Both the position numbers and the translations under genes were made by a program. The notes under the pieces were generated by a model. The model ran no database searches. It had not been told where the DNA came from and saw nothing but the letters and a program-made list of their open reading frames with translations. A DNA stretch of 62,718 nt, filler included, from Collodictyon triciliatum (lineage: Eukaryota), in assembly GCA_043381765.1 (NCBI GenBank). It is 8 parts of 8 records of this genome, joined end to end, with 100 filler letters (N's around TTAATTAATTAA, not from the genome) between each part and the next. Parts side by side here need not be neighbours in the genome. Positions count along the whole stretch, not along the records: positions 32,752 to 40,846 come from JBHJMP010003592.1; 7 more parts are not named here. One strand, 5' to 3'. Shown piece after piece: positions 13,546-61,380 of this stretch; within the stretch, counting starts at the first letter, position 1, and the number at the start of each line of letters is the position of its first letter.

Positions 13546-13578
<33 letters not shown>

Positions 13579-16252
13579 GTAAAATTTCTTGAAGAAATTA
13601 CGTCTTTCCCTCCATACACAAAGATAGTGTCGCTATTTCTCTGACACTGGGCCCCAATAAGGGTTCTGGGTAAATTTGATTTTTTCGCCCAATTTCTAGT
13701 TGACGCATGAAAGAAATAAGTGGACTCATCAGGTGTGCCAACCTTTCCACCAATCAAGACGGCATATGAATCCATCGAAATCAAGCAACTGTGCACCCTT
13801 TTTGAGGGAACAGTCCCACTAACTTTTGCCAACTTCCATGTCGGATTGACTTCATGGGAGAAACAGACATTTTTAGAATTAAGGTATGTGCAATTAGGCA
13901 CCACTTTCGAATTTGGATCTGATGAACTGTACCTGGGGATTCTGCGTAGTAAACCTCATCCATGGAATAAAAGCGTTCATAATGGTCAGTGTCTGGTGAA
14001 GAGCTACCACCAATCACGAATATTTTCCCTTGAATTACGGCTGCTGTTCCATAAACAATCGGAGGCAGCCCATTACTGAGCTCAACTGCTTCGGTCTCCA
14101 CAACATGCTGTAACAAATCTATTGCATATTTGATATTAGTTGGTTCTACAATTTATTTCGCCTCATATGAAATGTGCACAGGGTATGAGAACCTCGGAAT
14201 GGAGTTTCTGGCGAAGGTGCATCTTGTTGGCACTTCAATTACATATGGTAGTACACATCAAAACATAAATTATTAAAATGAGTTGTTTTTTCTCATGGGA
14301 ATTACGATGCTAGTATAAAAGAACCCAGTTGAGCTTACCTCATCCCCAGATGAAGTATATAGGCCATTTATGCAAGGGACACATTCGCCGCGAAAGTTAA
14401 TATAATTTCCCTTCTTACACGTGCACCCACTCAAATCAGCTGAAAAGCCCAAATTACAGTCTGATAGAAATAATTGGATTAGTTTAATTTAACCACTAGA
14501 ACCATTGAGTATCTCGATAGTGTTTAAGGTCACGAACTGAATAGGAGGATAGAAAATCCAATGTTGGTCGCCGCGTCTTCCTCGACTCTGAAGGACAGCT
14601 GGATGTCTCTCGATATTGCTTCTACTACATCACCTTGCTTCATGTTGAAGAACGAGAGCTATCATGCAATATTGTCAGAGGAGAACATAGACGACAAGTA
14701 TTTATGTGTGTAGATACATCTTACGGCACCATTGTATCGGTTAAATAAAAACATTTTTATGGACGCGGTTCTTGTAGTTAAATCCAAGCCCACACTCGTC
14801 ACTTGGAGATAAATTCAATACTGCACCATCTGAGAGATCCACGTACTCAACCTGTTTCATGTATTCAATGAATTACGAGCGAATATATCGCATGAAATAG
14901 CTATAAATTTCTTTAATACTCAACTTTAAGAATATATAAGTATCCTATATTTCTTAGAATCGAATAGAGTAAAAAAAAGAAAAAAGGATCAGATACATTT
15001 ACTTACGACTATAAAATTTGCTCTCGTAATAATCCATTTGCAATTCGTCCCAGGAAAGTAAAGGAATTCCCCACTCCCATCAGTTATTCTGCCGCTGTCA
15101 CTTGCAAAGTAATCCACTCCGGAACACCATAATTTTCCTTTTTTATATAGTAATTATATAGGAATGTTCTTTATTAATTTGGATCATTTTTAATATATTT
15201 TCGTTTCTTTGAATCGATTAAACGGGAAAATATTGTCGTTTGAATGCATCAAAACAATATAAAATCGTCTTACTCAAGTCTAGTGTATACAGCCCATTTG
15301 TAGAAAGCCCAGGATTTATGCTGCCCCCGAATAAGAACATTATGTTGGATATTGTTATCATCGATGACCTCACCCTTCCAGGAGGGGCTTGTTCGATGGA
15401 CGGTAGCTCTGCCCAGTATGCAGATTTTACTAGGGAAAAACTGGATTAGTATCACCCTTCCAAGTTCCAAAAGAAATGCATAAAGATTACTGAAAATTTT
15501 GGAGATCTTCTGGAACTTTGAAATTTTTTTTGTTGTATACTTACGATTTCCCATCCACGTATCGGAGGATAATGTCCATTGGTTGAATCCCCCAAAAGCC
15601 ATTAGGTTTGATAAATGAACAGCTACAAAGCCGACTGAAATGCCCGGTGGATAAGTTGCAACTTTCTTCCATTTGTTAATATCTGCGGAGTGAAATGAGC
15701 CCTTTTATTTATTATATAATTTGAATATACATATTATATATTTATACATTAAAATATAATTTAAAAAAATCAAAATTGGTCCCAAAAATGATACCTTCAT
15801 TCCAACACCAAATTTCACGAAAAGCTCCGGGTAAATCGTAAATGTTGACGTCCAAGAAGCAAAACTGCTTGTTGATAACAATACCATCAGCCGATAGTCG
15901 AATCGCCGGTCCGTCGTCAGAATTTGGAATCGTAATACCAAACCCCTCGTCAAAATGATAAACATATATATTGGATGGGGGAACTGTCCCGTTGACATGC
16001 ATTCCACCCCACATGAAAAGCTTGTCTCCAATGATTGCGCTTGCAGATAGATAACGAACCCCAAGATCCATCCAAAAGGTATCAGAAGTATTCATATTGG
16101 ACCAATTCATGTATGCTAAAATTTAATTGAGTGAGTAATTGTTTTATCACATTCTCAAACGATAATTTGATGTTCTACTGAGATGGAGCCATTAGTTTGA
16201 GTTATGATACTATTTCCGAATATTGCAGTTTCATGATAGATTCGGGATATAG
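9216..16252 (-). CDS. Multi-exon receptor-like TKL kinase: many Kelch repeats + 2 CUB domains + EGF-like unit + TM + N-lobe of kinase (5' partial; kinase C-lobe absent)
   Basis: Kelch GG motifs (LFMWGG, AVLIGG, LYIFGG, FVMIGG, FVVFGG, IYISGG). CUB starts CSGVDYFASDSGRITDGSGEFLYFPGTNCKWII (~15010-15125) and FDDGSGEGMYFENSNCTWIL (~10620-10740). CPEKSDFNEESLKCECFEGY. TM IWIVIGATLGGFTLLAAVVGYWY. Kinase IGRGGYGEV, VAIKK, LRHPHIVLYMGAC, ICEFMKNGSL, ending at SDICKG|gt (9216). Confidence 0.85.
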
Positions 16253-16352
16253 NNNNNNNNNNNNNNNNNNNNNNNNNNNNNNNNNNNNNNNNNNNNTTAA
16301 TTAATTAANNNNNNNNNNNNNNNNNNNNNNNNNNNNNNNNNNNNNNNNNNNN

Positions 16353-16480: not shown

Positions 16481-17426
16481 TAAAGAAAAGAAAAAAGGCT
16501 GGTCTTCGAACCTCGCTTTCGTCGCTTTCGTCATCATCGCTCTGCAATACAAGACTCTGCGTGGGCCTCGCCATTAACCCGGAAACTACACGAACGGTTT
16601 GTTAGTCCACTAAGCGCAAGGCCTGCAGCTGAAAAAGGCTCCGTTTCTGCAAAGGCAGCCAAACGCACAAGCATGTCTATGCAACCGGTCGAATTGAATA
16701 CGTTTGGATATGCTTCGGCAAACAAATCCACAACGCGCGAGTCTGCAGCGATCCTTCGCTGCGTGTGATTCGAAACCATANNNNNNNNNNNNNNNNNNNN
16801 NNNNNNNNNNNNNNNNNNNNNNNNNNNNNNNNNNNNNNNNNNNNNNNNNNNNNNNNNNNNNNNNNNNNNNNNNNNNNNNNNNNNNNNNNNNNNNNNNNNN
16901 NNNNNNNNNNNNNNNNNNNNNNNNNNNNNNNNNNNNNNNNNNNNNNNNNNNNNNNNNNNNNNNNNNNNNNNNNNNNNNNNNNNNNNNNNNNNNNNNNNNN
17001 NNNNNNNNNNNNNNNNNNNNNNNNNNNNNNNNNNNNNNNNNNNNNNNNNNNNNNNNNNNNNNNNNNNNNNNNNNNNNNNNNNNNNNNNNNNNNNNNNNNN
17101 NNNNNNNNNNNNNNNNNNNNNNNNNNNNNNNNNNNNNNNNNNNNNNNNNNNNNNNNNNNNNNNNNNNNNNNNNNNNNNNNNNNNNNNNNNNNNNNNNNNN
17201 NNNNNNNNNNNNNNNNNNNNNNNNNNNNNNNNNNNNNNNNNNNNNNNNNNNNNNNNNNNNNNNNNNNNNNNNNNNNNNNNNNNNNNNNNNNNNNNNNNNN
17301 NNNNNNNNNNNNNNNNNNNNNNNNNNNNNNNNNNNNNNNNNNNNNNNNNNNNNNNNNNNNNCACGTGACCGTGTCGTGTATTATAATTGCACGACGACAT
17401 GCATATATATGCAATGGAAATTACAA

Positions 17427-20400
17427 TTAAAAAAGAGAGAGGAGAGAAAGTTGCCCAGAAAATACGAATTCTATTTCGAGATATCTAATTTCGCACCAAT
17501 AAGACACATGAGACCCAGGGAGTTGGATGTACTCGTGCAAGTTTTCAAGACTAAGCTCCTGAAGCATAAAGTCAAAGCGTGGTAATGTAGGAACATCTTC
17601 AGCCTTGGCCACGGCTGAGGAGTTGTCTTTGATGAATTTGCGTATTCTGTGATAGTCTGAAACGCAACCATCCAACGCTGGAATATACTCCTGGTCGTTG
17701 AAGGTGGGCTGAGTCACAGCCTCTGTTCTTTCGGGAAAGACAGAAGATGATTCAGGCATTTGCTGAGATGACTGGATGGCCTCTACATCAAACGCAGGCT
17801 CCGTCTGTGTTGGAGGCGCAAGCAACTGTTCGTGGGAGCTTTCGTCGGAATCAGATACATCTGACCTGCTCGACGATGTTTCGATTCCACAGGATTCGTC
17901 AGTAGATAACACAGCCAATCCGAGTCGACTTTGTTGGTTTGGAATTTCTATACTCGGAGAACTTGCTGTTGCTATAGCTATGGAACCAATGTCTTTAATA
18001 GATTCTTGAGGCTGCTTCCTGGGCGAAACAGAGAGCGATTTTCTTCGAAGTTCCAGCGGGAAAAAAGGAGATTTTGTCCGCTTTGAGTCACCTGATGAGT
18101 TTGCCAAAGATGCTTCATGCTCGGGAAATTCAGGCAAACTTGATGTAGAGGAAGGCTGGGCATGATGGGCTAAACTAGGCGAGAACATATGCTTGGAATC
18201 ATCATCAAATTAGAAAAAAAAAACTTCAGTAAATTCATGCAAAAATAATACTTGGTAGGAAAAAAACTTGTTATTATGAAAGAGGTGAAATAATGTGTGG
18301 ATAAGTGGATAAATCAGGAAATATATACTATAATATTAATGCAATCTTTTAGATATTTTATGGTATTTTAAAATGTTTTATGACATTTTAATTCATGGGT
18401 TCGAGTGAGAAAAATTCTTTTTTAAAAAAACCTGAAATCGCGGAGAATCAGGAAAACTGAAGGAAAATCGAGCTCCTCGGCTGCTGGAGGGGTCAGGAGA
18501 ACTTGATTGCGGTGGTTCATCTTCGGCACCAACCTGCCCAACTCTCCCAGAGGAAAATGACTGTCGTGCAGCAGATATTCTTTCGAGAGTTCTGGATTTC
18601 CGGTCGATAACAGCCTGGACTATTTGCTCTTTGGACTCGAGAAGTTGATCTATTTTCTGCTTCGTAAGATCTATCCATTGGGAATACAAGTGTCAGTGAC
18701 CCATGACTAATAAAATTTGAAAAAAAAGTCGATGATAAGATGCTTTCTATATTTCCTTTTTCTTTTAAAATAAGAAAATATATTATAAGCCGACTATACT
18801 ATGAAAATAAAAATACGCACACACTTTGGCTACTTTTAAACTTCCATGAACACAGGGACAGATGAAATATTACAAAAAGGAATAACCTCGAATCTCCTGA
18901 ATATTTTCCGATACTTTCTGTTTGATTTCTTCCTTTTTGTTCATGAATCCTTCGGATATTTCCATGATTTTGCGTAGTGTCTCTGGATAATGAGTAACTG
19001 GTTTTGGGCTTAATCTTGAGTACGATTCGTCGAGCCAGGGTTCGAACCTATGTTATCATTAAACCCTTGAGAGAAAGAGAGAAAAAAAGGGCTCTAGCCA
19101 ATTAATACATATGGTATGGCCCTATTCCTGGGTAGAAAAGGTGAAAAAGGAAGCCAGAGAAATACTTACCGATAGGCGATGGGGTCACCAATATTGAATA
19201 TATTAAAGAAATATTTTACACTTGGCAATGGCACCTACGAATATTCAAAGTAAACATGTATCAGCAAATATAGCCAGATCTATGTCCTTTTTCATGGAAA
19301 AATAACTCGTAAAGATAATATTTTCCCAAAGATGGAATCTTCGAAACAAACATCTCCAGTTTTTTCATAGTAAAGGCTCATATAAATTCCAATAGGGGAG
19401 CCTATGACAAAAAGAGTGTTCACTGTGAACTTTAATGGAGGAAATGTCATTCGGTTTCTAGTTGGGATATCCAGCACAACAGGGGTTCCATCTTCACTCT
19501 GTCAAGGACGTGAGCATTTTAAAAAAATTGAAAGGAAGTTTTGTGCAAATTCGAAACGGTAAAGCTTGGTTTCATATCCAAAGGGAAAGTATAATCACCA
19601 TGACAAGTCAAAGAAAAAAAAAAGGAATAAGCTTTTCCCATGAAACGCACAATTGGCATCAAAGAAACAACTGACCTGATGAGTAAGAATGTCAAAACAG
19701 GCAACGCTACCCAAGCTGTGTGCGATAATAGATGTCTAGGGGAAAAAAAGTTACTCTCAAGATTCCCCGAAGTAGACGGTATGCAAGGAATTTTATAACG
19801 TGTAGCTATAATGGAATTTTCTCGCTTTGGTTGGAAGTAAACAAACCTTTCCGTTGAATTTATCACCAACAGGATTAGCTTCGATAAATTCGTTGTATTT
19901 ACAATTTAGGCGATTTGTTATCTGTGAATTAGTAACGTTACCGGTTTGCTGATAACGATGTAAAAAAAAAAAGATTTCTTTAATCTCCATAACAAATTGC
20001 TAACAGGATTATTTACTCCAAAAATGTAAATACCTCCATCAAGATTTTTGGACCATACTTTGCGCTTAGATAGGTAAAGCAGTCACCCAATGTATCATTA
20101 ATGATAAGCCTCAACTTTCTAGTTGTTTCCAAAGTCACTGGGTTTACTATTCTAAAATTTGAAAGAGAGATGGATATGTAGGTGTGTTGAAATATTGCTT
20201 TTGGTACTTTTACTTGGCTATATTTATAGTTTGCAAAATAAGTCTTATCTGTAGCTTGATTTTTAATTAATGTGCTCATTTGAACAAAAGTAAGATGTGA
20301 GAATGATGGATTGAATGAAATATGTTTACTTGTCCCATCCGAGCTGCTCATGGACATATGAATGCCATTCGACGACTACAAACTCGATATTCAAGGTTTT

Positions 20401-21713: not shown

Positions 21714-22522
21714 CCGTGGGCCGTTGTCTGGCAGAAAAGTTGCTGCACTGGAGAAACTCCCTGTGGTGGGAAGCTGTGTTTCGGTCTTGGTTTGTGTGGG
21801 AGAAGACTTGTGTTGTTTTCACGTGGTGAATCGAGAGAAAGTGCGGCGCGCTTTTGTCCAAAAAAAAGTGTCAAAAAAAAAGAATGAAAGGAGGAAAGGA
21901 AAAGATAGAGGAAGAAAAAAAACAAAGGAGGAAAGGAAAAGGATAACAATCGTGATATTCGCGCAGAATCCGNNNNNNNNNNNNNNNNNNNNNNNNNNNN
22001 NNNNNNNNNNNNNNNNNNNNNNNNNNNNNNNNNNNNNNNNNNNNNNNNNNNNNNNNNNNNNNNNNNNNNNNNNNNNNNNNNNNNNNNNNNNNNNNNNNNN
22101 NNNNNNNNNNNNNNNNNNNNNNNNNNNNNNNNNNNNNNNNNNNNNNNNNNNNNNNNNNNNNNNNNNNNNNNNNNNNNNNNNNNNNNNNNNNNNNNNNNNN
22201 NNNNNNNNNNNNNNNNNNNNNNNNNNNNNNNNNNNNNNNNNNNNNNNNNNNNNNNNNNNNNNNNNNNNNNNNNNNNNNNNNNNNNNNNNNNNNNNNNNNN
22301 NNNNNNNNNNNNNNNNNNNNNNNNNNNNNNNNNNNNNNNNNNNNNNNNNNNNNNNNNNNNNNNNNNNNNNNNNCGGCCGAAACACTTACAAAAGGCTCGA
22401 AATCTGATCACAACCCGAATCGCAGACGGCCTTAAAAGAAGACGGCGCCAGAGAGAGAAACAAAGCGGAAAGACAGCACGCGAGAGGATTCGAGAAGAGA
22501 AGACAGCGCACACACAGTTCAG

Positions 22523-23329
22523 ATGCCAAAGATCAAGACTTCAAAGACAAAGTATCCGAAAGGATGGGAGCTGATTGAGCCCACACTCACAGACATTCAG
22601 AGGAAGATGAGAGAAGGTCGGGAACAAACTCTTTTCTCTTTTTTCTCTTTTTTTCTCTTTTTTTCTCTTTTTTTCTCTCTTTTTCTCTCTTTTTCTCTTT
22701 TTCTCTTTTTCTCATTTTCTCTTTTCAAGAAAGGATTACATACTTGCTTCCAACAACAACCATATTTTGTATCATGTTCACACAGCCGAGAATGACCCAC
22801 ACGAGGGAAAAAGAAAAGTGGAAACCCTGTGGCCGATCATCCGTCTGCATCACCAACGCTCCAGATACATCTTCGACTTGTACGAGAACGGCAGCATCTC
22901 CCGCGAGCTCTACGACTTTTGCCTCCGCGAGAAATACGCTGACGAGAAGCTGATTGCCAAGTGGAAGAAGGTATGAATCGCGTCCGACAGAATTTTTTCA
23001 TATTCAAAGTCGTATTATTATTATTATCATTATTATCATTGTTATCATTATTATTATTATCATCATCATCGTCATCATTTGTATCTATTATACACATGAT
23101 TGTTTCTGATTGTGCAAAAAACCACATATGTTGGATTCCATCTCATCCCCAAAACCAAACCTCGATGCAGCCCGGCTTTGAGCGGCTGTGCTGCGTCAGC
23201 TGCATCCAAGCAAAGGACCACAACTTTGGAACCGCGTGCATCTGCCGCGTCCCAAAGTCTGACTTGGAAGCCGGCCGCGCTGTTGAGTGCGTAAAGTGTG
23301 GATGCCGCGGATGCGCCACGACCGATTAA
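22523..23329 (+). CDS. BUD31: BUD31/G10 splicing factor; exons 22523-22616, 22786-22970, 23171-23329
   Basis: MPKIKT...[11 protein letters not shown]...[22 protein letters not shown]...[12 protein letters not shown]...[15 protein letters not shown]...CICRVP...[15 protein letters not shown] junctions are in frame. Confidence 0.97.
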
Positions 23330-24456: not shown

Positions 24457-24737
24457 NNNNNNNNNNNNNNNNNNNNNNNNNNNNNNNNNNNNNNNNNNNN
24501 TTAATTAATTAANNNNNNNNNNNNNNNNNNNNNNNNNNNNNNNNNNNNNNNNNNNNTTTTTCTTTTTTCTTTTTTCTTTTTTCTTTTTTCTTTTTTCTTT
24601 TTTCTTTTTTCTTTTTTCTTTTTTCTTTTTTCTTTTTTCTTTTTTCTTTTTTCTTGGTCCTTGAACAACTTGGGGGGATCACAAACAGCCTTATTGTTTT
24701 TTTTCTTACGTCAATGACACAAACCGGTTATCCAAAG

Positions 24738-27700
24738 GTCCCCCCAGAGGTCGCAAATGCGCGAAGACTCGCACGAGAAGACATCGAAGGCGGCCGCTTG
24801 GATCAGGCATTGAAGACACTCAACGAGGTTCGGTTAGTCAGCTGCATATTGCTTCTGCGCTCACAAGATTTGTGTATGCCTCTGAGCACAGGCCTTATCT
24901 TGCGATTTTCTCACGAGACGCTTGCATGTAGATGATTGACAAACACCCAGAGTGTCATCTGTCCTACATGGACCGGGCTTGTCTACACTTTTTGATGGCT
25001 AAGTCAGTGGACACTCTCTTTAAGAAAACGAAGAAAGAAAGAAAGAAAAAAAAAAGGAGCCTATCTAGGCTGATTCAAAAACACTCACTCAGTTTTGACG
25101 CGCACAAGCCTCCGTCTCTCAAATCCGCATTGGCCTTCTACCAACGATCTTAATTATATCTATTTTGTTTTATCTAAATACACTAGGTTCAGTGCCGGCT
25201 TCGAAGACTTACACGCGTGTATCAGAGTCACTCCACTCTACTTTGCTGTACTATCACATCAGTTCATCTCGTGCTTCTCTCAACATATCAAACTTGTTAA
25301 AGACTATATCTCCTACATCAGAGTATGGTGTCCGTATGTTGACGCATTTTTATTTGTTTAGGAGTTCATATCTGTGGCAAACTCGCAACTGAGAATCAAT
25401 CGCCCCAAGGCATGCCTCGGCTTGATCATTTTCGTCCTCATGCAGTCCACCACACGAATTCCAATCGACCAGATATATGATGCGCTTGTATTGCTATCGA
25501 GAGCCCTATTCCCCTCCGAACCCAGTCCAGAGTCCTCTCAGAAGCCAGAAAAGATGGACGACTATTTCCGTTGCAATCTTTGCAGCCATCTGCTTGTTGC
25601 TCCGGTGACGAATGCATGTGGACACAGCCTCTGTTTCTACTGCGCTGACTCTGCGCATGTATGCCCCACGTGCCGGTTCCCGTGGATGAAGGAAAACGCA
25701 CAAACAAGTGTTGCATTAGACCAGATTATCTGCATCGTCGACCCCCAAAGCCATTCCACCTACAAGTCACTGAGCCACATCCTCAAGAAGCAGATTAAGT
25801 GTCCACTGGAGGTTTGAACTAACTTTTTGTTTGGTTCTTTTAATTATAAAAGAATTGGAATTCTTATGTTATAGCCATGATGAAGATGATATAGGATGAA
25901 GAATGTATGTCCGTAGGTGTATGAAGTTTATGATCTTCTTGAACAGTTCGACATGAAGCTTATTCAAAACTTAGGCTGCAGAGAAACTGGACAGACTTGC
26001 ATCTGAGAAGCCCGATAGCGTGCCTGTGTCTGTATTGAGAATAACGTCGTTGCAATCACAAGGAAAAGTTATGGATGCACTTCTTCAATCATTTTTGAGT
26101 CTAAAAAGGAGTCCAAAAAGTCTCGACTTACTGTCCGTCACATGCCAGACCATCAACTCATTTTTCACACTCACACCGTCAGTCGAGGTAACCCAGATTC
26201 CATTCTCATATACTTTTAGACTAATGCTCGATTCATTCTTCAACACAGTTGTTTTTATCTTTCAATGCCAACATGCAAACTGGTGTCCAACCAACATTAT
26301 GTACATAGGAGTCCATATCAACCAAGATGTACCATCTTGTAGCATATTTTTTCCGCGAATATCTAAGGTATACACCAAATCACAAACTTACAGATCTTTA
26401 TAGCCGAAGGAGCTATTTATTTAATACGGGCGCATATTCATTTCCTTGTACTTACATTAAACTACCCAAAGAATCGAAGAAATTTATAATATGAAATGGT
26501 GTAATTATGTAAAATAAAATAAAAAAGAATCAAGAAACGAGATATATTCCCTCTTTTACGCACAACAGACGCATCGACACAAACGAGGTAGCTTGTTCAC
26601 AAAAACGGCAGGAGAACATCACCCGTTCCTTCGAGCCATTATTTGCAAAGATGGCCAACACTCGATTCCTGGACTCTATTGTCTGCAGCAACTGGCCCTT
26701 GGCAGACACTACCCCACCCATATGCGTCTTGCTGGGCGACTTGGAGCAGTATGCACAGGCCCAAATACAGGCTGCAGAGGCGCCGACTTGTGAACCCGTT
26801 TTCTTGGCCAAGAGGCCTGCGTGCTCGTCCGAGGAATGTGCCGATGGGTCGCGCAGTTGCAAACAGAGCGTCCGCCGTGAGCCTGCATCATCGCTTCGAG
26901 ACAAGATTCTGGAAGAGCTGCAGTGCATTTTATGCATGGAGCTGATGCTCGACCCGGTCACCACGTCATGCGGGCATTCATTCTGCAAAGTCTGCCTTAC
27001 TCGGAATCTAGACCATCGAAACACGTGCCCGCAGTGCCGCGCTGACTTGCAGGACTATATTCGTCCGGACCTGCAGGTTGTGGACCAAACGCTCTCTGGT
27101 ATCATCCACTGCGAATACAAAGGTGTCTTCTTGCGTAATATGCGCATGCTTTCGAGATATTCCTCGGTCCCATTTTCCTTTTTCTTATTTATTTTTTTCA
27201 ATCTTCCTTTATTTACTACACCGTCTAGCACGCTTCAACGATTTCATCTTGGATACTTTCTTTTATAGCTGAGTACGAGGAGAGAGTCAAGAGCCATCAG
27301 AAGGAAGTTGCCCAGCAAAGGCAATATCTGCCCATTTTTGTGTGCTCTCTTCTGCTGCCGCACATCGAGTGTCCACTGCATATATTTGAACCAAGATATA
27401 GGTTGCTACTTATTTTTATACATCCTTTCCTATATAAGTCTGTTTTATTTCCCTTGATGGTTTGTTGACCCACGAATTTATTTATTTATTTATTTTTTAC
27501 CAAAACGACCATTCAAATGTTATTGTAAATGATAATAATAACAAAAACTATACTATGATTAATGTCGTTGACATATACTCTTGACTTTATTTCGTCTCCA
27601 CGCACATATGCCTGTATGACTACCAGTCAGTCTGTATAGACCATGGAATGATTCTTATATAAATCGAAGAATAAGAAGGGCGAAAAAACGAGCCCTTTCG

Positions 27701-29885: not shown

Positions 29886-32367
29886 TCACTTGCGCTTGGC
29901 GGCTGCGGGTTTGAGGCGCTCGACATCAGCGGCGCACTTTTTCGTCTCGGGGTGTTGTGGGCCGAGCTTCTGGGCATAGACGGCGAGGGCCTTTGAAAGC
30001 AGGTCGAGAGCCTCGGCTGGTCTCTTCTGGTTCTCGTGCAGGAGGCCCATGTTGCGGTGCGTCATGGCCACGTCCGGGTGTTGCGTCCCGTAGACCTTGA
30101 CGCGTATGGCCAGCGCCTTTGCGTAGAAGTCCAGTGCGGCGGCAAAGCTGCGGTGAAGGTGGTTTCAGAGACTCGGTCTCAAGTGAGTTGCTCTTTTTTC
30201 TATCTTTTTTTTTTCTAATTTGCCTTTTTTATGTGTGTTTTTTCTGTGTTTTTTTTTGTTTCTGGTTTCTTCTCTAGTTTCTTTAAATTTTTTATTTCCA
30301 ACTTATTTACTTTTATCTATTCTAATTCACTTCATCCCCTGCGTATGTGTTGCGGATACGAGACGCTTACTTTTTCTGGCGCTCGTAGACACCCGCGATG
30401 TTGTTGTAAGTGGTGGCGACGTCTGGGTGGGACTCTCCGAGAGTCTTGAGTTTGATGGGCAGAGACAGATTGTAGTATTCCAGTGCCTTACCAAAGCTGT
30501 TTGGATGGGACGAGAAGATGGGGATGGGATGTGGTTAACGCCTCGGGTGGTTTTGCTTCATGTTTATGCTGAAAGTATACTTAATGTTTTCTATTTTTTG
30601 GAAAAGAAAAAGGAAAAAAAAAGGGCACTAAAATGCAGAGAAAATAAATAGCTAGAGTATCTCCATGTTTGCACCAAACGATGTGACCGAGGCGATGCAC
30701 CCAAAACATATTTTGTTATATTGTTTTTCCTTCATTCATATAAATAAAAGCTACTCTCCGATGCTGTAATAAACGCTTCCTATGTTGTTGTACGAGGCCG
30801 CGATGCTTGGCGAGCTTGGGTCGAGAAGCTTTTGCTTAATCGCAAGGGATTTCTGGTGGTAATCCAACGCTTCCTTGTGTCTGTCATTTTCACGAACAAC
30901 AATTTAGTTACAGCCTCTTTTTTTCTTCGATATCGAAATAAAAATATTGTTCAGATAAAATAGGAGGATGAAGTCTTTTAAGACAACTTGCCCATTATCA
31001 CATTTCAAGATTGAGAATATTTATTCTGAACAAACAAAAACCTTGAAAGGCTGTCGTATATAATGCCGATGTTATTATAGGAGGCCGCAACATCGCTATG
31101 AGTTTCTCCGAGAACTTTTAACTTCACTTGCAATGACTTGTTATAGTAGTTTAACGCCTCATCCAGTCTGCATGGGACAAGAAAATTGGTGTTTTAAATG
31201 AAAAAGTTGCAAATATAGGGAAAATATGATGGCAACGATGAAAGATTTAGAAGCGGGATTCTTAATACTTTGACATCTTATAGTAAACAAGCCCGATGTT
31301 ATTGTAAGTCGTGGCCACATCTGGGTGGTTATCTCCATGGACTTTGAGACGAATTTGTAGAGATTTGTTGAAGCACTCGAGCGCTTTTTCCTGTCTGTAT
31401 TCATCGATTTATGCACGGCGTTGAAAAAAAAGTTTATGTAATAAGAAAAAAAGTGCCTTTTGTGTAGAAAATCACGGGTAATAGGCAGGGAAAACAAGAA
31501 AACGAAAATCAAGGGAGAAAAAAGGAGGGAGAAGGATAGGCAAAAACACTCATAATCACAGAGACATGAACTATGGTTTTTCTTCAGGATAAAAAAATAG
31601 CTAATTGGCGATGTTATAATTTCCAATATAGTGATTTATTTTATTTTTTTTGTTTCTGACTAAAATACCTTGAAAGGGTGTAATGAATGAGCCCAACACC
31701 GTTGTACACATTCCCCACGGACACGTGGGACTCTCCGTGTAACCGCATTCGAATCTGCAGAGCCTTTGAATAATGCTCTAGAGATTCGTTCAACCTACAC
31801 AACCACACACAGGCGTTTTATGGACATAATACAAATACACCCGCTATTTCTAAGATTATGTGTAGGAACTTAAAACAAAAGTGTATGTATTATGAAACTG
31901 TGTTCATGAAGTCTTTTCTATTTCTATTTCTGTTTCTATTTCTGTTTCTATGTAAATCGACGATTGACATCGAAGCATACTTTGATTTTGTAAAGTATAA
32001 ATTCGTCATCGCCTCGAAAACTTCGACCGTGGGCACCTGGAATTCTCCAAGAGCTTTCATTCGAATCTTCAAAGCATTATAGTAGTTCGATACAGCCTCT
32101 TCTAGTCTGTGACAGGGATGGATACGTGCATGATAAAAATTAGCAAAACTATTTATTCAATATGATGAATCACTTCCAAAATAAAATAAAAAATAAAATG
32201 AATGGGATGTGCTATCAATCTTCAGCATTCATGGTTTATACATTTTGAGTGAGCCGTAGGCTGGAGCTATGTTGAAGTATGATGTGGCAACACTCTCGTG
32301 CTCGGGTCCAAAAGCCTTGAGGCGGATAGCAAGTCCTTTTGCATATGAGGCCGATGACATGTCGTGC
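29886..32367 (-). CDS. TPR-repeat protein (42-aa KLC/NPHP3-type TPR_10/12 repeats), 5' partial. Exons 32242-32367, 31981-32106, 31669-31794, 31269-31394, 31042-31167, 30755-30880, 30371-30496 (each 126 nt) and terminal exon 29886-30147
   Basis: Each exon encodes xxxALxYYxKSLxIxLKxLGExHPxVAxxYNNIGxVY. All are bounded by AG/GT in phase 2. Confidence 0.93.
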
Positions 32368-32887
32368 CTGGGTGAATTGAGGGATTTGTATGAGCCTTTG
32401 TGAATCTGAATGGGTTGTTTATATTACATTCTGTTTAGTTTTAATCTTGGGCTGTTGTTTGTGGGGAACATATTGGTCTCATAGTTTTGGGGTTATAATG
32501 GTGTTATTTCATGTGTGCTTTGAGGTTTTCTTACATTTTTTTGGTTTTTTGGTTTTCTTGTTTTTTGTTTTTTGTTTTTTGTTTTTTGTTTTTTGTTTTT
32601 TGTTTTTTGTTTTTTGTTTTTTGTTTTTTGTTTTTTGTTTTTTGTTTTTTGNNNNNNNNNNNNNNNNNNNNNNNNNNNNNNNNNNNNNNNNNNNNTTAAT
32701 TAATTAANNNNNNNNNNNNNNNNNNNNNNNNNNNNNNNNNNNNNNNNNNNNAGGAGGAGGAGGAGGAGGAGGGGAGGGGAGGGGAGGGGAGGGGGGCAAT
32801 GTCTGCGAGAATTTAAAGACGATATCAAATTCTTGAAAATAAAAACCTACATCAACAAAACCAAACAATAAAAGTAAAATCAGAAAA

Positions 32888-35800
32888 TCAAGAGAAGTGG
32901 AAGTGAGATAGACATAAAGCCTGATATACAGAATGTGCCCTACCAGGATTTTTCCATTCATTCAAATAATTTGCGCTCGACATGGACAGGAGAAATTCAG
33001 AATTATTATAACCCCAGTGCTCCCGAAGAGCGCGAAAGGCGCCAGGAAAATAATTCTTGAAATTGAAAGAAGGAAATGGCCCATTCACATCCTCCAAGAT
33101 TACAGACGGAGTCCAGTCGATAGATCCTTTAGAAAATGTCGTATCCATCTCAGATGGATCGGTTCCGGCATCACTTTGATTTCGTCTGTGGCCTGTGCGC
33201 AGACCTTGCAGAAGAGACTTCCTCGAGTCTTGCGGGCGCGACATGACTTTCTGTTCAGGGGTTTCTCGAAAGTACGTATGGAAGCTGTGGTAGGCACTCT
33301 CAGTAACTTCTTCTACAGCGTTTTGACTGGGTAATTTGTCGGGATCGGATATTCCGCTGAGGTTCAAGACACGCATGGTTTCTGACACAGATTTCTCTAG
33401 ATGAATACTGTTTCTGGACATCTCGTGGCGCAATGTGAGGCGAAATCCAAGGCGAATACACGGGAGAATATTGACTCGTTTGTTGAGTCGTGCTTTAGGA
33501 TCTGCAACCAATGAGCTCCTAGGTGAAAACTGACTAGAAGAACGATGATGCTGATTCAATACACTGCTTTCTAACCTAAAGTAGTAGAATTTTTTTTCTG
33601 CTTAGAAAGGCACACCAGGATGTTCAACAAACTTGTCCCTGATTTGGTTCGATGGTGTCTATATCTACTAACTTTTCCAAAAATTTCTCTAATAATAAGA
33701 CAAAAAAGCAGGAGGTTCACTTGAAATTTTGATAACGTACCATTGCAAGTCAAGGTCTGGGTACTTCTCACAACAATCGAGGTAGAAGCGATGATAAGGT
33801 ACAGTAACGTTACTAATATCATTCGATGTAGTCCACAGTTTGAGCAGTTCTGATGCCTGATATTCAGATATATTGGCAAGTTATTACATAAGGTGAGAGG
33901 TATGCAAATATTAAATTAATAGCAATATTAACATGTTAAATTAAATTAAATTAAAAAATAAAGTGGTGTAAAATCCACCTTTCCGATGATTATTTGTAGA
34001 TCAACAAACAGAGTTGACAGAGACTCATGAAGCTGAAATAATCATGTATGTTAGGGTAAGGGTCTTTGATGACATCATTTTGTGAATTAATTGTTCAAAA
34101 ATAAAATTTTTGGTTTTGGATTCTTACATCCTTTGCTTCAGGGTTGGTAACAGTTTGCTGACATGAATAGCGAACAGCACTAGCAATAGATATTTCCATC
34201 ATTTGGAAATCCTTTACGACTTCGATGAATACATGTTGTAACAGCGCAACCTTGCTACATTTCAAGAAAATAAATTACAATATAGAATTTGTGCTATTCA
34301 CTAGTTTATTTACTATATTTCGATACGGCAATTCAGTTTTTTTTTTCTCTGAACTATCACTAGCAGATCAACATTTTGAATAAACTTTTGACAAATGTAT
34401 CTTAACGTTTTCATGAACATTAAAAAAGAGCAGCGATATATATATTTCTTACCAAGCATCATTAAAAACTTTCGTTGACGAGAGGTACCGGAAGTTTTGG
34501 CGTCCTATAACATATAGCAAGACGACGGCTTTGGAACGTTGCTGGGGATTTGGGTTATTGCAAATCCTCAATATTTCCACTGCGATCTGTCGGAGTTTCT
34601 CTTGGCCTTTAACTCTATAAACCCATTCAAATACCACGTTACGTAAAATGAGTCTGGAAAGGGATGACAAGGATAAAGAAGTCAGGTTTCTTAAGTAAGG
34701 GGAAAGGTAGGAGGGAACACCTTATATTACGTAATAATAAATATGTGTGTAAATAATTATCAAACTTTTTAAACAAGTCCTCGTTGAAATAAGGAATCAG
34801 AAGCCTCCAACATGTCATGGCTGAATTAGCAACTTTATAAGACTGCTCCAACTGTAAAATAGCCAGAAATATGTCCACAATATAATCAACGAAAGGCGTT
34901 TTTGCAGATGGTGCTATTCTCTGGAGGTATGTATGCAGAACTCCTAAAACTATCAGCGTGACTTCAACAGAAAGGAAGCGTGATGTAAATTGCATGTTGA
35001 GACTGGTTATTGAATTGATCATCTCATTCCGGTGAGGCGATGGAGATACGGCTTCATTAGATCCGGGTTTATTCGCTACTCCTTGCTCGCTGGAATCAGC
35101 CGGAGAATGGTCTGATGCAAATGTTACGATACAAGCCTGTAAAAACCCAAATAATTTCCTGGTTGCAGTGACGGTGGATAATTCGTCCTAAAAGATTTTA
35201 GTCATGTAAAAATAAGCATATAAATAAAGTAAATAGACAGCATTGCAGCCTTTAGTGAGAAAACCATGGCCAATTGGATACATGATGTTACCGTATAAAC
35301 TTTCGCAAGTTTCCATTTTGGTATATTTTTCATCACCCATAGTACACAGAGCAAGTACGTCTTTCTTTCCTCTTGGTCTTCAGGTATGTGGTACATCGTC
35401 AGTAAAGCAGAATATATGTCAGCAAGTTCCATCTTGTCATCAGCCGTTTGATATCGAGAGTCGTAATCGTGTTTCACGAGCAAGTCTTTCATCATAGTAA
35501 CTAAAATAGTTGTCACATTTTCGTTATAGATTATGTACGATATAATCATATGATTGTGCAATATATATATATATATAAAGAACATAATGTAAATAATGAC
35601 TAATCCCCCTCCTCTTTGTTATGGAAATACTATTTACTGATTCCTTTGCGGTAGTTTGGGTGTGATGTGGTCGACAAGGCGCATTTGACTTCGTGCAGTA
35701 AAATGGATGCCGGAACATTTTTGCAAGTTCCATCTAGAGATATTAAATAGATGAATAAAGGGAAAAAAAGAAAAAAAGAAAAAAAGAAAAAAAGAAAAAA

Positions 35801-38800
35801 AGAAAAAAAGAAAAAAAGAAAAAAAGAAAAAAGAAAAAAAAGAAAAAAGAAAAAAGAAAAAAGAAAAAAAGGGAGGTGCATTTATAGGGTTTACTGCTTA
35901 GCCATATATTTCTTAATGTTGGTTTATGTTATTTCAATCTAAATAAAATATGAAGGACAATTGAAACCTTCGCATGGAGTAATTATTTTTTCTCCGTGTA
36001 CCAGTGTGAAAGCAGAAACCGGAAGTATGCAAGGGGAATTCAAATAGATATACAAAGGAGACTCTGCTATAGCCCGAAGGAGTTCCAACTTCATTTCAGG
36101 TAGATCAGATATTTCGAGGTAATAGCATTCCAAAATGAGGAATGATGTGCTGGGATCCATGAATATAAAGAGGTCTCGAATGAACGAACAAACATGGATG
36201 TTCAGTTCCTAAAATATTTGAAAGCATGAGTGGTAGAAGACATTACTCCTTCTTAGTATATTAGAAAATTTCATACACCCCTACAATATCTCAGGATAAA
36301 TATGACTAAAAGTAAATGGAAAAAAAAAGTGAATTAATGCTAACGTTTTGTCTGGGCCCGTCAAGGACATCAGTGTTTCTTAGAAATGTAGCCAGCTGGG
36401 CAAGTAAAGTCATGATTAAATGAACACACCGTTCACTAAAAAGCTGTTTCGCTAAAAATTCCTCAGTGTAGATTCCGGCTTCAGTTCTTTCTTCCATGAC
36501 GTTGACAGGTGTGAATGTCACCATGTCGAAGGAGCGCATCGGAGATACACTCTTTGAATCAAATTTGGAGACTCGTAGGCTCATCGACTTTCTCAGTAAA
36601 GAAAACAATATGGATGTGGATGATAGAACTTCATATATCGTGGGATTGAATCGCGGGGCCTGTATGTTAACCAGATATAGAATTTCAATATTGCTATCAA
36701 ATATTGATTATTATTATTTTAAAAAAAAGTAAGCCGTCAATCGATGAAATACGAATAGGTATTATTTTCAGCTGTTAAAGGATGAACATGTAATCCCAAA
36801 AATTAAAGCATATAACCTGAAGGTAGTTTATCCATCTGGCACATATTTCCTCGTAAACTAGACGTTTGTTGAATATAACCTAAAGCATACGATATATGAT
36901 CCAAAATATGGCTTAAAAGAGAACCCTCTGGATATGTATGAAACTAGCAATTTTCTATCAGGAGGTCACAATTTTGGCTCCAATCTCACCTTGTCGAATA
37001 CAAATTTGATGTACCAGTCCATAATCGGAATGGAGTGGCACAGAGGCTCATCCCTATCGATCGCAAATGAAGTAAATGTGGGTTTGTTAGAACACAGATC
37101 CAAAAGGCGATTGGGTTCACTGGTTATTGAATCGATCATTTACTCGAATTTAACGGAGCCAGGGTCCTTTCTCACTCCCGATTCCATCAGGGATATCATG
37201 ATATGAACAAAACTACAAAATGCAGTGTATCCTGTTTCGCCATGGGCTGTCATCGAATTCAATAGCAGATTGAGCACCATGGGTATTTTATCGACATAAG
37301 AGTCCAACGGTACTTCGTTCAAGGCTAGACATACCATTAATTCGACTTCACTTAAGTATATAACTTGCATTTGCATTTTTAATTATTTTTTAACCAACCA
37401 GATATTGCCGCAATTAAATCAGGGCAATGCGGTTCCAAAATATGTTTCCTGTTTGCATTTATTCAGTCGATTTTAATACCGGAAAAATCATCCGTTTGAT
37501 GGAAATGAAAAAAAATCAATTGAATTTGTTTCATAACAATCGATATAACGTAAGCATACCTGATAGATTCAAAAAATAGGTTTACATTCGGAACTGCAGA
37601 GTAAATATTAGATACGAATTTACAAGATATTTCTGCAACGCCGGGAGACTCTGCAGATGGCATTTCAATAGCTGTAGTAAACGGGGATGACCAGCACAAT
37701 AAAGCGAACAATGTATTATATGCAATCGAGATTAGTATAGGTCAACCAAATACTAATAAATTACTCAATCTGCAAGTCTAAAAGTCGAATGAAAAAGTTG
37801 TATATCATTGCTCTTATTACTTTTTAGGTATTCCGTTTTTGGTTCCCCAGAATATACGCTGACGCAATGTATACCATCATACAACGGTTGACCATGGTTT
37901 AAAAGCATCAGAGCCGCGAAACCTTTGAGAAATTCAAATGTTCTCAGAATTATGAACATAAAGTTTCACAAAAGCATGGCAGTCAACCCAATCATAGTAA
38001 TAGTAATTTATATTGATGGAATTCATTTTTCACATACCCATAGGAACAAGAGATGTCGCAGAGCCCCGATAGTCGATGCCTAATGAAGAATATATCATGA
38101 AATTTTATTTTGCTGCCAATGGATTACTCGTTCAGACACAATTGATACCAGACTAAAGATGGTGTTAAGATAAAAAAAAAAAAAAAGAAGCATCTCAAAC
38201 TCACTAGGATTAATTTGGTTCATATACTGCATTATTTCACAGACTAAATATAAAATTGGAAAAAATTTGTTCATGATATTCAGTGGTCTGTGAGAGAAAA
38301 AACCTAGAGCATTCATAGTTGCAGCGGCGGCTGATTGACCCATCGATATAAGGCGAGCAGTGGAGCCTCGCCGAGGGGAATTTGAAGGGAAGCTTTGTGA
38401 TCCAAGTAAAGGTGAATGCCTCATTTCTGCTCGCACTGAGTAGAGCGTAAAGAGAACATGGTGTCTAGTATTCGGTGGCATAGGTGAATATGGTTGATTT
38501 TTTGATTATTTTTTTTAAAAAGGGAGAAATATAAAAACTTTATCGAGTTTCCTATAGTTTTTTGCTTACTAGATAAGTAATAATATGCTTTCTTAAAAAA
38601 ATAATAAATTGAATTGAAAAAGAGGAGCAAGTGATTTACCTGGAAGTAAGTGCCACAGGTACCTCTAGCTTCAATTGAACAGAGAACTCAAAATTATTTT
38701 GCTTCGTTTTCCTGGTTGTAACATGTGTAAATGTACTATCTATTAACGATGGGTCTTTACTACCACCATAGATACACCCAAGTCCAGACCCCGATCCGTC

Positions 38801-39182
38801 ATTGTCTCGAACTTGGGCCCGGACAATGATTTGTGTCTATGTGAGCAACAAAATAAAAACGTTAATGATGTATAAACAACATTATTTTGTGGACAAAGAA
38901 ACAAACAAAACAAAACAAAACAAAACAAAACAAAACAAAAAAAAAATAAAATAAAACAAAAATAAATATCATGTAATTTACTCTTCATTACCTTCGAAGT
39001 AATTCCAGTAATGTTTTGCAGATAGAAATTTATCGGGCCAAGATAAAGCACATTCAAGTAAGTACATTTTGGTGTTTGTAAACGAGAGCTGCTATAGGTA
39101 AAGTACACTAACGATTAATTATTTTTTTTTATCGATCTGAGATAACTGAAAAAATTAAAAGAAGTCGTGCATGTCATGAATC

Positions 39183-39277
<95 letters not shown>

Positions 39278-40760
39278 TAGCTTCATGGAAATTGTTCCAT
39301 ACATTTTCTGTTCAAAAGAAACTAGGATTATATAATCAACTGAGTTGCAAACCTGTCCAGATTCTGAATTTCACGAACAACGTTATCGCCGTATCCATCC
39401 TGGGAGGGAGTGTCATCTCCGACTGTGAAAACGAGTGTTTTGAAAGTAAATATATATATATATATATACAATACGCTTATTAAGATATTTCACTTTCCTC
39501 ATGGTTTCTAAGTGGCAAGGTGATAAAAAAAAAAAGCAAACGACTATCAACAATCATCTTCATAAACAAAGCAATATTTTAATATCATTTTGAAGAAATA
39601 CCAATCAAGGCAGGATTTATCACAACGGGGTTATAGCACGGGTCAACGCGAATCCTTCCAGCAGGAAAACGTCCTTCGTCTAACTCCATGCCTTATCAAA
39701 AAGAAATGTAAAGTCGTATTTTGAGAACCATTTGATTATTTTATTTTCATACATTGATTGGTTGTAATACAGAGTCCGAGTAAGAAGAAAAATAACTTCG
39801 GTTTTTAATTTTTTTTACATATTGGAAAAAAAAAGTAAAGATAATACCGCTTATAGATAAAGTTAATTTTCTGAGTCTGGAGCCCCAAGGTATGCCGTCT
39901 TTATGGAGCAAGGGGAAAGTCATATGTGGTGTCGACCTCATGTCGCAAAATTCAGATATTGTCATATCTGATTGATAAAAAGAAGGAAGAAAAACAGGAG
40001 ATGGTTTGACGCATGTTCTACCATGGGCTATTAAGTTGAGATAAAAATGTTTATAAAATATTTTTTTATCAGAGCATTCAAGGTATTAATATATAAACCA
40101 TAGCATAAGTAAGAATAATATGCTGGTAATGGATTGACACTAAAAGAAAATCGCATGCACACGTCCCCTCTCACATTGAATAAATAGAAAATATCTACAG
40201 TAACATATCGTGTACTTGATCGATGATTTCTTCTCTTGAAAAAAAAACCTGAATGCAGGAGGCACATCCCATCCAGATTGTATATAGGAACAAGAGCTAT
40301 GGCAATCACTTCTCTTACGTGCCTTTGTAGATAGCCTTGATCTAAATGGTCACTCCTGGCTAGTCCTTCAACACAAAGCTCTTGTGTCCGCAAGGTCTAA
40401 ATAATTTTAAAAAAGAATAAAATTTATCTAACAGAAAGAACCAGCACAATGGATAATGCAAATATCAATTGTTGCTTTACTTATCAATATATGATCAAGA
40501 CGAATTAAAAAAAAAAAGAATAGAAGAAATATTACCTGTTCGATAGTAATGGCAAGATATATGTTCGAATATCTAGCGCTAAAGGAGACGAAATAATGTA
40601 AAGAATGGTCTTCATATGAAACATGAATGGTATGTTACTTGATTTGCATGATATCAACAAACACATAAGAACCTCGTCTGGAAAATGGCTGACTTTGCGC
40701 AATTATACAGAAATACAGATTGGTTCTCCAAGATTGGATTGAGATCAAAATGAAAATCCT
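32888..40760 (-). CDS. DOCK-C/D (zizimin-like) protein: C2/DHR1 + ARM region + first DHR2 helix, fused to the N-lobe of a PIP5K (PIP kinase) domain; partial at both ends
   Basis: DOCK motifs EDFHFDLN, SAIF, IYLAITIEQ, TYLNVLYLGP, HHVLFTLYSV, FFSLLRKSM, FIRDLFIFMDP, DLLVKHDYDSRY, LLCVLWVMKN, VEVTLIVL, VLLYVIGRQNF, YPDLDLQW|LE. These are followed by IRLGFR and FNFKNYFPGAFRALREHWG...FLLSM...KNPGRAHS (PIP5K F.FKdY.P.vF..lR..fG...yl.Sl...pGkSgS). Confidence 0.8.
39184..39276. repeat. (AAT)n intronic microsatellite
   Basis: Direct inspection. Confidence 0.97.
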
Positions 40761-41117
40761 CTTCGGTTGGAAATTAATGTTGGTGAATAAGAGAGACAAA
40801 CCGTACATAAAAAAAAAAAGGGGAGAGATTTTCACCTTTTCTAAAANNNNNNNNNNNNNNNNNNNNNNNNNNNNNNNNNNNNNNNNNNNNTTAATTAATT
40901 AANNNNNNNNNNNNNNNNNNNNNNNNNNNNNNNNNNNNNNNNNNNNCTCTTTTTTTTTTCTTTACATGTTTCCTTTCAACGTTGGGTAGTATTTTCAACA
41001 TCACGACTAGGAATCAAAGGAGAAAGCACGGGAAAAGAAAAAGAACCCCAGCTCTCAATAATCTAGCGCGCTTCTTGGATAGTAGGGAAACATATGCAAC
41101 CATGTTTTAGTTTTTAG

Positions 41118-41234
41118 TTTTCAGTTTTCAGTTTTCAGTTTTCAGTTTTCAGTTTTCAGTTTTCAGTTTTCAGTTTTCAGTTTTCAGTTTTCAGTTTTCA
41201 GTTTTCAGTTTTCAGTTTTCAGTTTTCAGTTTTC
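41118..41234. repeat. (TTTTCAG)n heptamer repeat
   Basis: Direct inspection. Confidence 0.95.
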
Positions 41235-48918: not shown

Positions 48919-49232
48919 AGAGAACAATAAAAAGAGAACAATAAAAAGAGAACAATAAAAAGAGAACAATAAAAAGAGAACAATAAAAAGAGAACAATAA
49001 AAAGAGAACAATAAAAAGAGAACAATAAAAANNNNNNNNNNNNNNNNNNNNNNNNNNNNNNNNNNNNNNNNNNNNTTAATTAATTAANNNNNNNNNNNNN
49101 NNNNNNNNNNNNNNNNNNNNNNNNNNNNNNNAAAAGACATAAAAAAGACATAAAAAAAGACATAAAAAAAGACATAAAAAAGACATAAAAAAGACATAAA
49201 AAAAGACATAAAAAAGACATAAAAAAAGACAT
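48919..49232. repeat. Minisatellites on either side of a linker: (AAAAAGAGAACAAT)n at 48919-49031 and (AAAAAGACAT)n at 49132-49232
   Basis: Direct inspection. Confidence 0.9.
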
Positions 49233-57015: not shown

Positions 57016-57315
57016 GTAAGTGAGACGGAACATATCGCGAATACAAGTTTAGACTGTGACAATACTTTTCAATGAGAGCGGTACAAAAGAAAAAGAAAAA
57101 GAAAAAGAAAGTAAGAAAGTAAGAAAGAAGAAGAAAGAAAGAAGAAAGAAGAAAGAAGAAAGAAGAAAGAAGAAAGAAGAAAGAAGAAAGAAGAAGAAAG
57201 AAGAAAGAAGAAAGANNNNNNNNNNNNNNNNNNNNNNNNNNNNNNNNNNNNNNNNNNNNTTAATTAATTAANNNNNNNNNNNNNNNNNNNNNNNNNNNNN
57301 NNNNNNNNNNNNNNN

Positions 57316-61206: not shown

Positions 61207-61380
61207 TGTATAATGTTTGTCTCTCGATTGATGAGGGAGATCTTTGCTACATTATATATTTAGTAATGTGGACTTCGACGCTTAACTGCCCATTATTCCT
61301 GCAGAAGAGCATATCTTTAACGAAGAGATTATATCAATCTTAGAGAGGCTCAGTTCTCCATGTCAAGATCAATAGTTATC

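Follow-up and report, generated by a model that had tools for sequence, protein, structure and literature searches.

A DOCK-derived scaffold apparently joined to a phosphatidylinositol phosphate kinase domain in Collodictyon triciliatum, with relatives in Diphylleia and Rigifila

The window analysed here, a stretch of 62,718 nucleotides from Collodictyon triciliatum (GenBank assembly GCA_043381765.1), contains a gene that seems to join a DOCK-type protein to a phosphatidylinositol phosphate kinase (PIPK). The gene lies on the minus strand of a single scaffold of 8.1 kb (JBHJMP010003592.1, positions 32752-40846). DOCK proteins are defined by the DHR2 exchange-factor domain, whose GTPase site lies in lobes B and C. 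Our results pointed, with a probability of about 0.85, to a real gene whose product is a DOCK-derived scaffold in which a complete lipid kinase domain of the PIPK type stands in place of DHR2. The same architecture and the same junction are expressed in Diphylleia rotans and Rigifila ramosa. We regard it as a real and apparently undescribed DOCK-PIPK domain architecture, a variant built from two known families, which lay in unannotated transcriptome data.

The two parts are joined across a predicted key intron of 165 nucleotides (33576..33740, minus strand, phase 2), which begins with GTACGT at 33740 and ends with CTTTAG at 33576. The upstream exon (exon 24, 33856..33741) ended with TAC CCA GAC CTT GAC TTG CAA TG, the downstream exon (exon 25, from 33575) opened with G TTA GAA, and the in-frame join read YPDLDLQ-W-LESSVLNQH; the GT-AG intron therefore connected the two frames in the way that an earlier, sequence-only reading of the locus had claimed. 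Exon 25 stayed open through ILPCIRLGFRL and FNFKNYFPGAFRALREHWGYNNSEFLLSMSSANYLNEWKNPG. In tblastn, residues 66-947 of P0001, a protein of Diphylleia rotans, were collinear with positions 37322..32942 of the window, and the boundary between residues 742 and 743 of P0001 (...DLDLQW|IEDSVLHQH) fell exactly at the splice site (33740|33574). The junction peptide was conserved in all three organisms, as PDLDLQWLESSVLNQH in the window, PDLDLQWIEDSVLHQH in Diphylleia and PGTDLSFLPEAAMDVH in Rigifila, and the Diphylleia and Rigifila proteins were contiguous across the site of the key intron. At the other end of exon 25 the relatives read NPG-GKSGS and the window read NPG-RAHS. Because the relatives continue with NPG-GKSGS and a donor, G|GTAGGG, is found at 32943, exon 25 was ended at 32944. 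The proposal that this exon runs on into the PIPK N-lobe held through NPG, but the “NPGRAHS” that it followed to the stop at 32888 was a read-through past the donor at 32943.

The search for relatives was carried out with the exon 25 protein and with the proteins that it retrieved. Among 959 long candidates, exon 25 matched P0001 with an E value of 6.1e-34 (43% identity, 100% coverage) and P0002, also of Diphylleia rotans, with 1e-26. An exhaustive search with the exon against 1.84 billion representatives gave six proteins at E <= 1e-3, with P0001 at 1.9e-34 and P0004 at 6.5e-5. P0003, P0005 and P0006, which were also among these six, are repeat proteins (PKD, MucBP, TPR), and their matches were set aside as spurious. 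P0001 and its longer isoform P0007 (1802 residues) derived from transcripts of Diphylleia rotans, and P0004 and P0008 (2615 residues) from transcripts of Rigifila ramosa. The architecture was thus found in three sources, namely this genome, at least two Diphylleia isoforms and two Rigifila isoforms. The protein modelled from the window shared 42.3% identity with P0007 (553 of 1307 aligned positions) and 25.3% with P0008 (310 of 1227). The closest relatives belong to the CRuMs protists, and freshwater metagenome runs contained pieces nearly identical to the sequence.

Outside this family the combination was not encountered. Among 99 proteins of 991-3154 residues that matched the kinase part of P0007 at E <= 1e-10, DOCK domains were carried by two, P0001 and P0004, so that within this set the combination was confined to Diphylleia and Rigifila. 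The remaining PIPK proteins of the 99 carried MORN, ankyrin, PH, FYVE, TPR, EF-hand, 7TM-LRR or Fab1-type partners, and the nearest long PIPKs outside the family were green-algal MORN-PIP5Ks and fungal and insect type I enzymes. The sequence-only reading knew of no DOCK-PIP5K fusion, and in line with this a full-text search of the literature found no description of a DOCK-PIPK protein, with subscription journals and supplementary tables lying outside its coverage. In a survey of PIPKs fused to G protein-coupled receptors (GPCR-PIPKs), the main text did not name DOCK, Diphylleia, Collodictyon, Rigifila or Mantamonas (PMC5784254).

The DOCK identity of the N-terminal part was examined with profiles and pairwise alignments. 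In the window, the exon at 38836..38640 matched the Pfam family DOCK-C2 (PF14429) with E 5e-6 and 27 bits, a single-exon score below the 33.6-bit cut-off, and it was the sole match among the 14 raw open reading frame pieces of the locus that were scanned. The relatives scored above this cut-off, with 71 bits for P0007 and 87.6 bits for both P0008 and P0004. The helical family PF28208, named TPR_DOCK9 in the Atlas, was listed in the precomputed Pfam column for P0001, P0004 and the insect DOCK9 protein P0009; a local Pfam scan gave no match over the helical region of the relatives. When residues 380-1330 of P0007 were compared with a set of 5.8 billion proteins, 2 of the 7258 candidates passed, P0001 and P0009 (E 7e-10), in a word-based search that is too insensitive for subfamily placement. 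BLASTP of P0007 with DOCK9 gave two collinear matches, of residues 393-1035 on 649-1235 (E 1e-14) and of residues 1003-1211 on 1346-1589 (E 9e-7). In hhalign, a profile of the three-member family aligned with insect DOCK9 at a probability of 99.8% (E 1.2e-28), placing P0007 37-1330 on DOCK9 167-1703, and the next-best alignments had probabilities of 0.3% and 0.1%. In a phmmer search of solved structures, residues 477-746 of P0001 matched residues 1340-1609 of DOCK6 (E 2.7e-4), just before the DHR2 domain of DOCK6. An Atlas search found DOCK7-like clusters nearest, with scores of 0.75-0.76 that are below the 0.9 level and are a lead only. The order of the exons thus followed that of DOCK-C/D proteins, as had been claimed, and these alignments show the approximately 1100 N-terminal residues predicted from the window to be homologous to DOCK-C/D proteins from the pre-C2 region as far as the opening helix of lobe A in DHR2.

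The homology with DOCK proteins ends close to the junction. The hhalign alignment finished with YPDLDLQWIEDSVLHQHDQ on CTPELRMTWLQALAGNHSK, where the per-column confidence was low, and the window peptide PDLDLQWLESSVLNQH corresponded to DOCK PELRMTWLQALAGNH, aligned to DOCK9 1687-1703. Since Pfam DHR-2 lobe A begins at DOCK9 1674 and the profile alignment stops at residue 1703 of 2139, the homology extends about 30 residues into lobe A, and the equation of the junction peptide with the start of DHR2 was borne out. Exon 24, which was 75% identical to P0001 703-742, was likewise aligned to DOCK9 up to residue 1703. Beyond this helix the window exon passes into PIPK sequence. In P0007 and P0008 no DHR-2 lobe was detected by Pfam at E <= 0.01, and their reading frames stop a few residues after the C-terminus of the PIPK domain, which agrees with the claim that DHR2 has been replaced by the kinase. 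The same two proteins had no Pfam match to PH or DOCK_C-D_N, and no further Pfam family beside DOCK-C2 and PIP5K at E <= 0.01.

The kinase core starts at IRLGFRLTL, about 30 residues after the lobe A helix and about 35 residues past the tryptophan of the junction, and this segment corresponds to the QLGI motif of the canonical proteins P0010 and P0022. The N-terminal core motifs of PIPKs (the LGI-type motif, FxFKxYxPxxFRxLR and the start of the glycine loop, at which the scaffold ends) were present in the window as IRLGFRLTL, FNFKNYFPGAFRALRE and NPG(G), with the counterparts NLQLGIRYTL, FKWKDYCPEAFRKLRD and SPGKSGS in P0010, and likewise in P0022. The insert between the LGF motif and FxFKxY comprised about 130 residues in the window and Diphylleia and about 45 in Rigifila. 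The identification of exon 25 as PIPK was upheld by its relatives, which have complete PIP5K domains: the Pfam family PIP5K (PF01504) was matched near full length in P0007 (E 1.1e-72, positions 5-287 of 288) and P0008 (E 1.3e-77, positions 7-286 of 288), P0002 reached E 9.1e-78, and the scores of the relatives were 245-262 bits. When P0001 was searched against the PDB, 22 of the 23 matches were PIPKs. Motifs and the activation loop were compared in six proteins, with motif names and the meaning of the activation-loop Glu taken from PMC3823935. The catalytic motifs read VVK, MDYSL and VID in P0007, ILK, MDFSL and IVD in P0008, and VVK, MDYSL and IID in P0002, so that the catalytic Lys (of IIK) and Asp (of MDYSL and IID) were retained in all three. 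In the relatives, the activation loop of P0007 (RKQMEYSFK) aligned without gaps with that of the insect type I enzyme P0022 (RKKLEHTWK) and retained the Glu, at the position of which the type II gamma enzyme (KKAAHAAK) has Ala.

Several observations told against the reading of a fused gene with a complete and type-I-like kinase, some of them concerning the kinase and the others the junction. Of the kinase domain, the window encodes only the initial ~175 residues, and the catalytic motifs lie beyond the end of the scaffold. Pfam scans, which found DOCK-C2 in a window exon as had been expected, gave no match to PIP5K in exon 25 at E <= 1, because the part of P0001 covered by the profile is 938-1222 and the scaffold breaks off at the equivalent of about residue 947, leaving at most ~10 profile positions; the model starts where the scaffold ends. 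The lack of a match to this profile had been named as a reason to abandon the fusion, and for the reason just given it has no bearing on exon 25. Compared with the PDB on its own, exon 25 matched PIPKs in 14 of 15 cases, over residues 169-211, with a weak best E value of 0.27, and tblastn with P0001 and P0007 revealed no further PIPK piece in the window. Overall similarity left type I and type II unseparated (E 1.2e-35 versus 1.5e-36). The activation-loop KK reads KQ in P0007, P0008 and P0002, and a QK variant of the loop was linked to reduced substrate affinity in PMC3823935. That source also describes protist pseudo-PIPKs, and together with the insert of ~130 residues between the LGF motif and FxFKxY in the window and Diphylleia this would fit a real fusion with a catalytically weak kinase or pseudo-kinase, the protein acting as a phosphoinositide-binding scaffold. 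Against such a scaffold stand the Lys of IIK and the Asp residues of MDYSL and IID in P0007, P0008 and P0002, the near full-length PIP5K match and the conserved activation-loop Glu, and we regard it as unlikely.

As for the junction, P0002 (460 residues, a complete open reading frame according to its source) is a PIPK-only frame opening with MLPCIRLG, at precisely the point where the PIPK core begins, and given P0002 a kinase-only product beside the fusion is possible. The evidence from the public run X1 was mixed. One X1 contig joins 33575 exactly to 33741 (joint 33573>33739, cut +2), as predicted for junction reads over 33576-33740, but its shorter side has 27 letters, under the 31-letter rule of the tool, and an unspliced X1 contig (33547-33768) also spans the key intron. 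The library type of X1 was taken as RNA by guess only. The locus might yield two products: an internal start would give a stand-alone kinase from the PIPK exon, as an additional or even the main product, and the DOCK-PIPK join would be a minor read-through, as P0002 and the unspliced contig would allow. The window itself does not favor this: ahead of the acceptor the frame remains open for 9 codons, and no ATG lies between the acceptor and RHEMSRN, which is itself within the conserved LGF motif region. In addition, three species share the junction peptide, Rigifila with its overall identity of 25% among them. P0002 was 43.5% identical to the window, as compared with 42.0% for P0007, and it shared 53% identity with the P0007 kinase part; because it belongs to a different Trinity gene from P0007, it is not an isoform of the fused gene. 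It may represent a paralogue that stands alone or else a second DOCK-PIPK gene truncated at its 5' end. We therefore hold the two-product arrangement to be quite improbable.

That the fusion is an artefact, either an assembly or transcript chimera or a set of chance-open exons linking a PIPK gene with a DOCK pseudogene beside it, draws on the fragmented assembly, the concatenated scaffolds of the window and the chimeras that are possible among Trinity transcripts, but is highly improbable in view of a junction internal to one scaffold and 800 bases from its end, an architecture shared by three independent sources, 1325 codons with 0 stops, and contigs of freshwater metagenomes that argue against misassembly because they cover the exon-intron borders at >=99% identity (X4 at 33470-33619 and 33670-33820, X3 at 32941-33091).

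A DOCK-derived scaffold carrying a PIPK domain shares features with three known systems. Like the exchange factors of the DOCK-C/D class (DOCK6/7/8 and DOCK9/10/11), the fusion has a C2/DHR1 domain followed by a TPR_DOCK9-type helical region in the same order, and the homology also takes in the pre-C2 region and the opening helix of lobe A in DHR2. Unlike them, it has no lobe A beyond ~30 residues and neither lobe B nor lobe C, which would leave it without a DOCK-type exchange site, and the PIPK domain occupies the place of DHR2. With type I PIP5Ks (PIP5K1, Mss4/Its3, and the MORN-PIP5Ks of plants and algae) the relatives share the full PIPK core and an activation loop that is gap-free against insect PIP5K1-gamma with the specificity Glu kept, whereas the fusion differs in the DOCK scaffold of 1300-2300 residues N-terminal of the kinase, in KQ for KK in the loop, and in the long insert after the first motif in the window and Diphylleia. 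In the GPCR-PIPKs (type IV; the Phytophthora GKs and Dictyostelium RpkA), also of protists, a sensing or membrane module likewise stands N-terminal of the PIPK (PMC5784254). The N-terminal module of the fusion, in contrast, is predicted to be a soluble DOCK scaffold rather than a seven-transmembrane receptor. Type IV enzymes have an LRxGI motif before the kinase, and a pattern search for LRx9G[IVLF] upstream of the kinase found it in 0 of 106 proteins, the fusion family included.

If the fused protein is built as its relatives suggest, DOCK-type exchange activity would be lost with lobes B and C. The kinase would be active and type-I-like, converting phosphatidylinositol 4-phosphate (PI4P) to phosphatidylinositol 4,5-bisphosphate (PI(4,5)P2), as the catalytic residues and the activation-loop Glu of the relatives indicate. 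The DOCK C2/DHR1 domain and the helical part would place this kinase on a phosphoinositide-marked membrane, and the recognition of lipid would then feed straight into PI(4,5)P2 synthesis, which would replace the activation of Rac/Cdc42. The fusion might in this way form the feed-forward module that the sequence-only reading had suggested. Positive feedback through binding of the kinase product by DHR1 is speculation. A wider proposal, which we consider tentative and rather doubtful, is that DOCK-PIPK is an old enzyme of collodictyonids and rigifilids, possibly of all CRuMs, in which a phosphoinositide-sensing scaffold drives PI(4,5)P2 synthesis and DHR1 binds the product or a downstream lipid. 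Such an enzyme would work as a self-reinforcing generator of membrane patches in pseudopod or feeding-groove dynamics and would bypass the DOCK-Rac-PIP5K relay; if this were true, the fusion would be a “Rosetta stone” for a direct DOCK-PIP5K coupling in other eukaryotes.

The architecture implies that the catalytic output of a DOCK protein has been exchanged for a lipid kinase and that two or more deep lineages of protists have retained the exchange, as has this genome. It presents the DHR1-plus-helical part of DOCK as a portable membrane-targeting module, and it would add a second class of “sensor-PIPK” fusions beside the GPCR-PIPKs. PIP5Ks are classic effectors of Rho and Arf GTPases, and the fusion may hint at a functional coupling between DOCK scaffolds and PI(4,5)P2 synthesis. 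Its weight is limited by the fact that the shuffling of domains onto PIPK domains is common in protists, with MORN, ankyrin, TPR, EF-hand, PH, FYVE and 7TM partners.

The gene is interrupted by the scaffold border at both ends. The model, running from 40773 to 32944 on the minus strand, comprised 25 exons with GT..AG ends in all 24 of its introns. Its exons were placed by tblastn of related proteins and by contig joints of run X1; the nine upstream introns were set by the fit to P0007 alone, and the borders between exons 2 and 3 and between exons 9 and 10 are the least certain of the model. Exon 1 of the scaffold part (40673..40773, upper border approximate) was found by tblastn with P0007 and encodes EEDFHFDLNPILENQSVFLYNCAKSAIF, equivalent to residues ~200-226 of P0007, and the gene has its actual 5' end outside the scaffold, past 40846. 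Exons 2-5 (40578-40536, 40396-40249, 39967-39848 and 39691-39602) and exons 6-9 (39422-39353, 39091-38992, 38836-38640 and 38464-38304), which were likewise fitted to P0007 with GT..AG introns, together span 38304..40578 and encode the pre-C2 region and the DOCK C2/DHR1 domain. The helical, TPR_DOCK9-type DOCK region (33979..37922), collinear with P0001 and P0007, is formed by exons 10-16 (37922-37821, 37671-37560, 37448-37399, 37324-37144, 37053-36990, 36879-36817 and 36659-36345) and exons 17-23 (36208-35968, 35733-35638, 35500-35292, 35187-34766, 34614-34453, 34254-34128 and 34032-33979). Exon 24 (33741..33856), the last DOCK exon, encodes ASELLKLWTTSNDISNVTVPYHRFYLDCCEKYPDLDLQ and the two letters TG, and in it the opening helix of DHR2 lobe A begins. 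Exon 25 (32944..33575) encodes (W)LESSVLNQH, a short linker, ILPCIRLGFRLTLRHE as the start of the PIPK domain, the insert of ~130 residues, and FNFKNYFPGAFRALREHWGYNNSEFLLSMSSANYLNEWKNP-G. From the donor at 32943 the start of the next intron (32752..32943) runs into a (CCTCC)n microsatellite, within which the low end of the scaffold breaks. The sequence below 32752, in the next piece, was unrelated to the gene. Metagenome contigs of JGI were searched with the exon 25 protein, and because none of the 146 pattern matches was confirmed, the 3' part of the gene was not recovered.

Among the joints listed, 15 introns of the model coincided with joints of X1 contigs, 14 of them, the key intron included, with CT..AC ends on the plus strand. 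For exons 10-23, 13 introns matched CT..AC joints and a 14th (34255-34452) was listed with TA..AA ends, in which two letters are odd. This irregular joint (34255>34456, letters AT) fits the intron 34255-34452 together with a single A>T difference between contig and window at 34455, which may stem from variation among strains or alleles or, at a depth of 5, from an error. X1 had no cover over 32752-33021, and X2 and X3 covered few bins only. One X1 contig has a loose end at 33457 that begins with TGGTATCAACGCAGAG, which we take to be an oligonucleotide of the SMART/template-switch type, and the next letters of the window, TACACGGG, resemble the tail of the oligonucleotide. The loose end is probably a library artefact of strand invasion or mis-priming; its orientation misfits the 5' end of a minus-strand kinase-only transcript, and the oligonucleotide suggests a cDNA origin for X1.

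The window is rich in long microsatellites and short tandem repeats (39180-39290, 32560-32650, 35750-35880, 41100-41230 and 60760-61260). Several repeats lie inside introns of the DOCK-PIPK gene, an (AAT)n run among them; (CAAAAAA)n and (GAAAAA)n-like runs and a 21-nucleotide unit that would translate as FSVFSFQ were also seen. The fragmentation of the assembly is probably explained by these repeats. The window is divided by linkers of the form N44-TTAATTAATTAA-N44, with a stop in six frames, at 8044-8143, 16253-16352, 24457-24556, 32652-32751, 40847-40946, 49032-49131 and 57216-57315, and the pieces between them shrink in order (8109, 8104, 8095, 8095, 8085 and 8084 nucleotides). The stretch looks like a concatenation of scaffolds sorted by size, in which adjacency across the linkers is artificial. 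Internal gaps of N letters were seen at 16781-17361 and 21973-22373.

Other genes were observed on the neighbouring pieces of the window. On the first scaffold, 577-6021 (plus strand) is a ROCO/LRRK-like gene, with LRR_8 repeats (577-1293), Roc and COR-A domains (2439-4220) and a protein kinase domain (4303-6021). Weak Kelch-repeat exons were seen at 11980-13955 (minus strand), a DDHD-domain exon at 17430-18209 (minus strand, E 1.1e-5), and the C-terminal exon of the splicing factor BUD31 at 22943-23326 (plus strand, E 9.6e-19). A C3HC4 RING-finger open reading frame (26513-27265, plus strand) shares its scaffold with short exons at 29889-32423 (minus strand), which contain TPR_12/TPR_10 repeats of the kinesin-light-chain or NPHP3 type.

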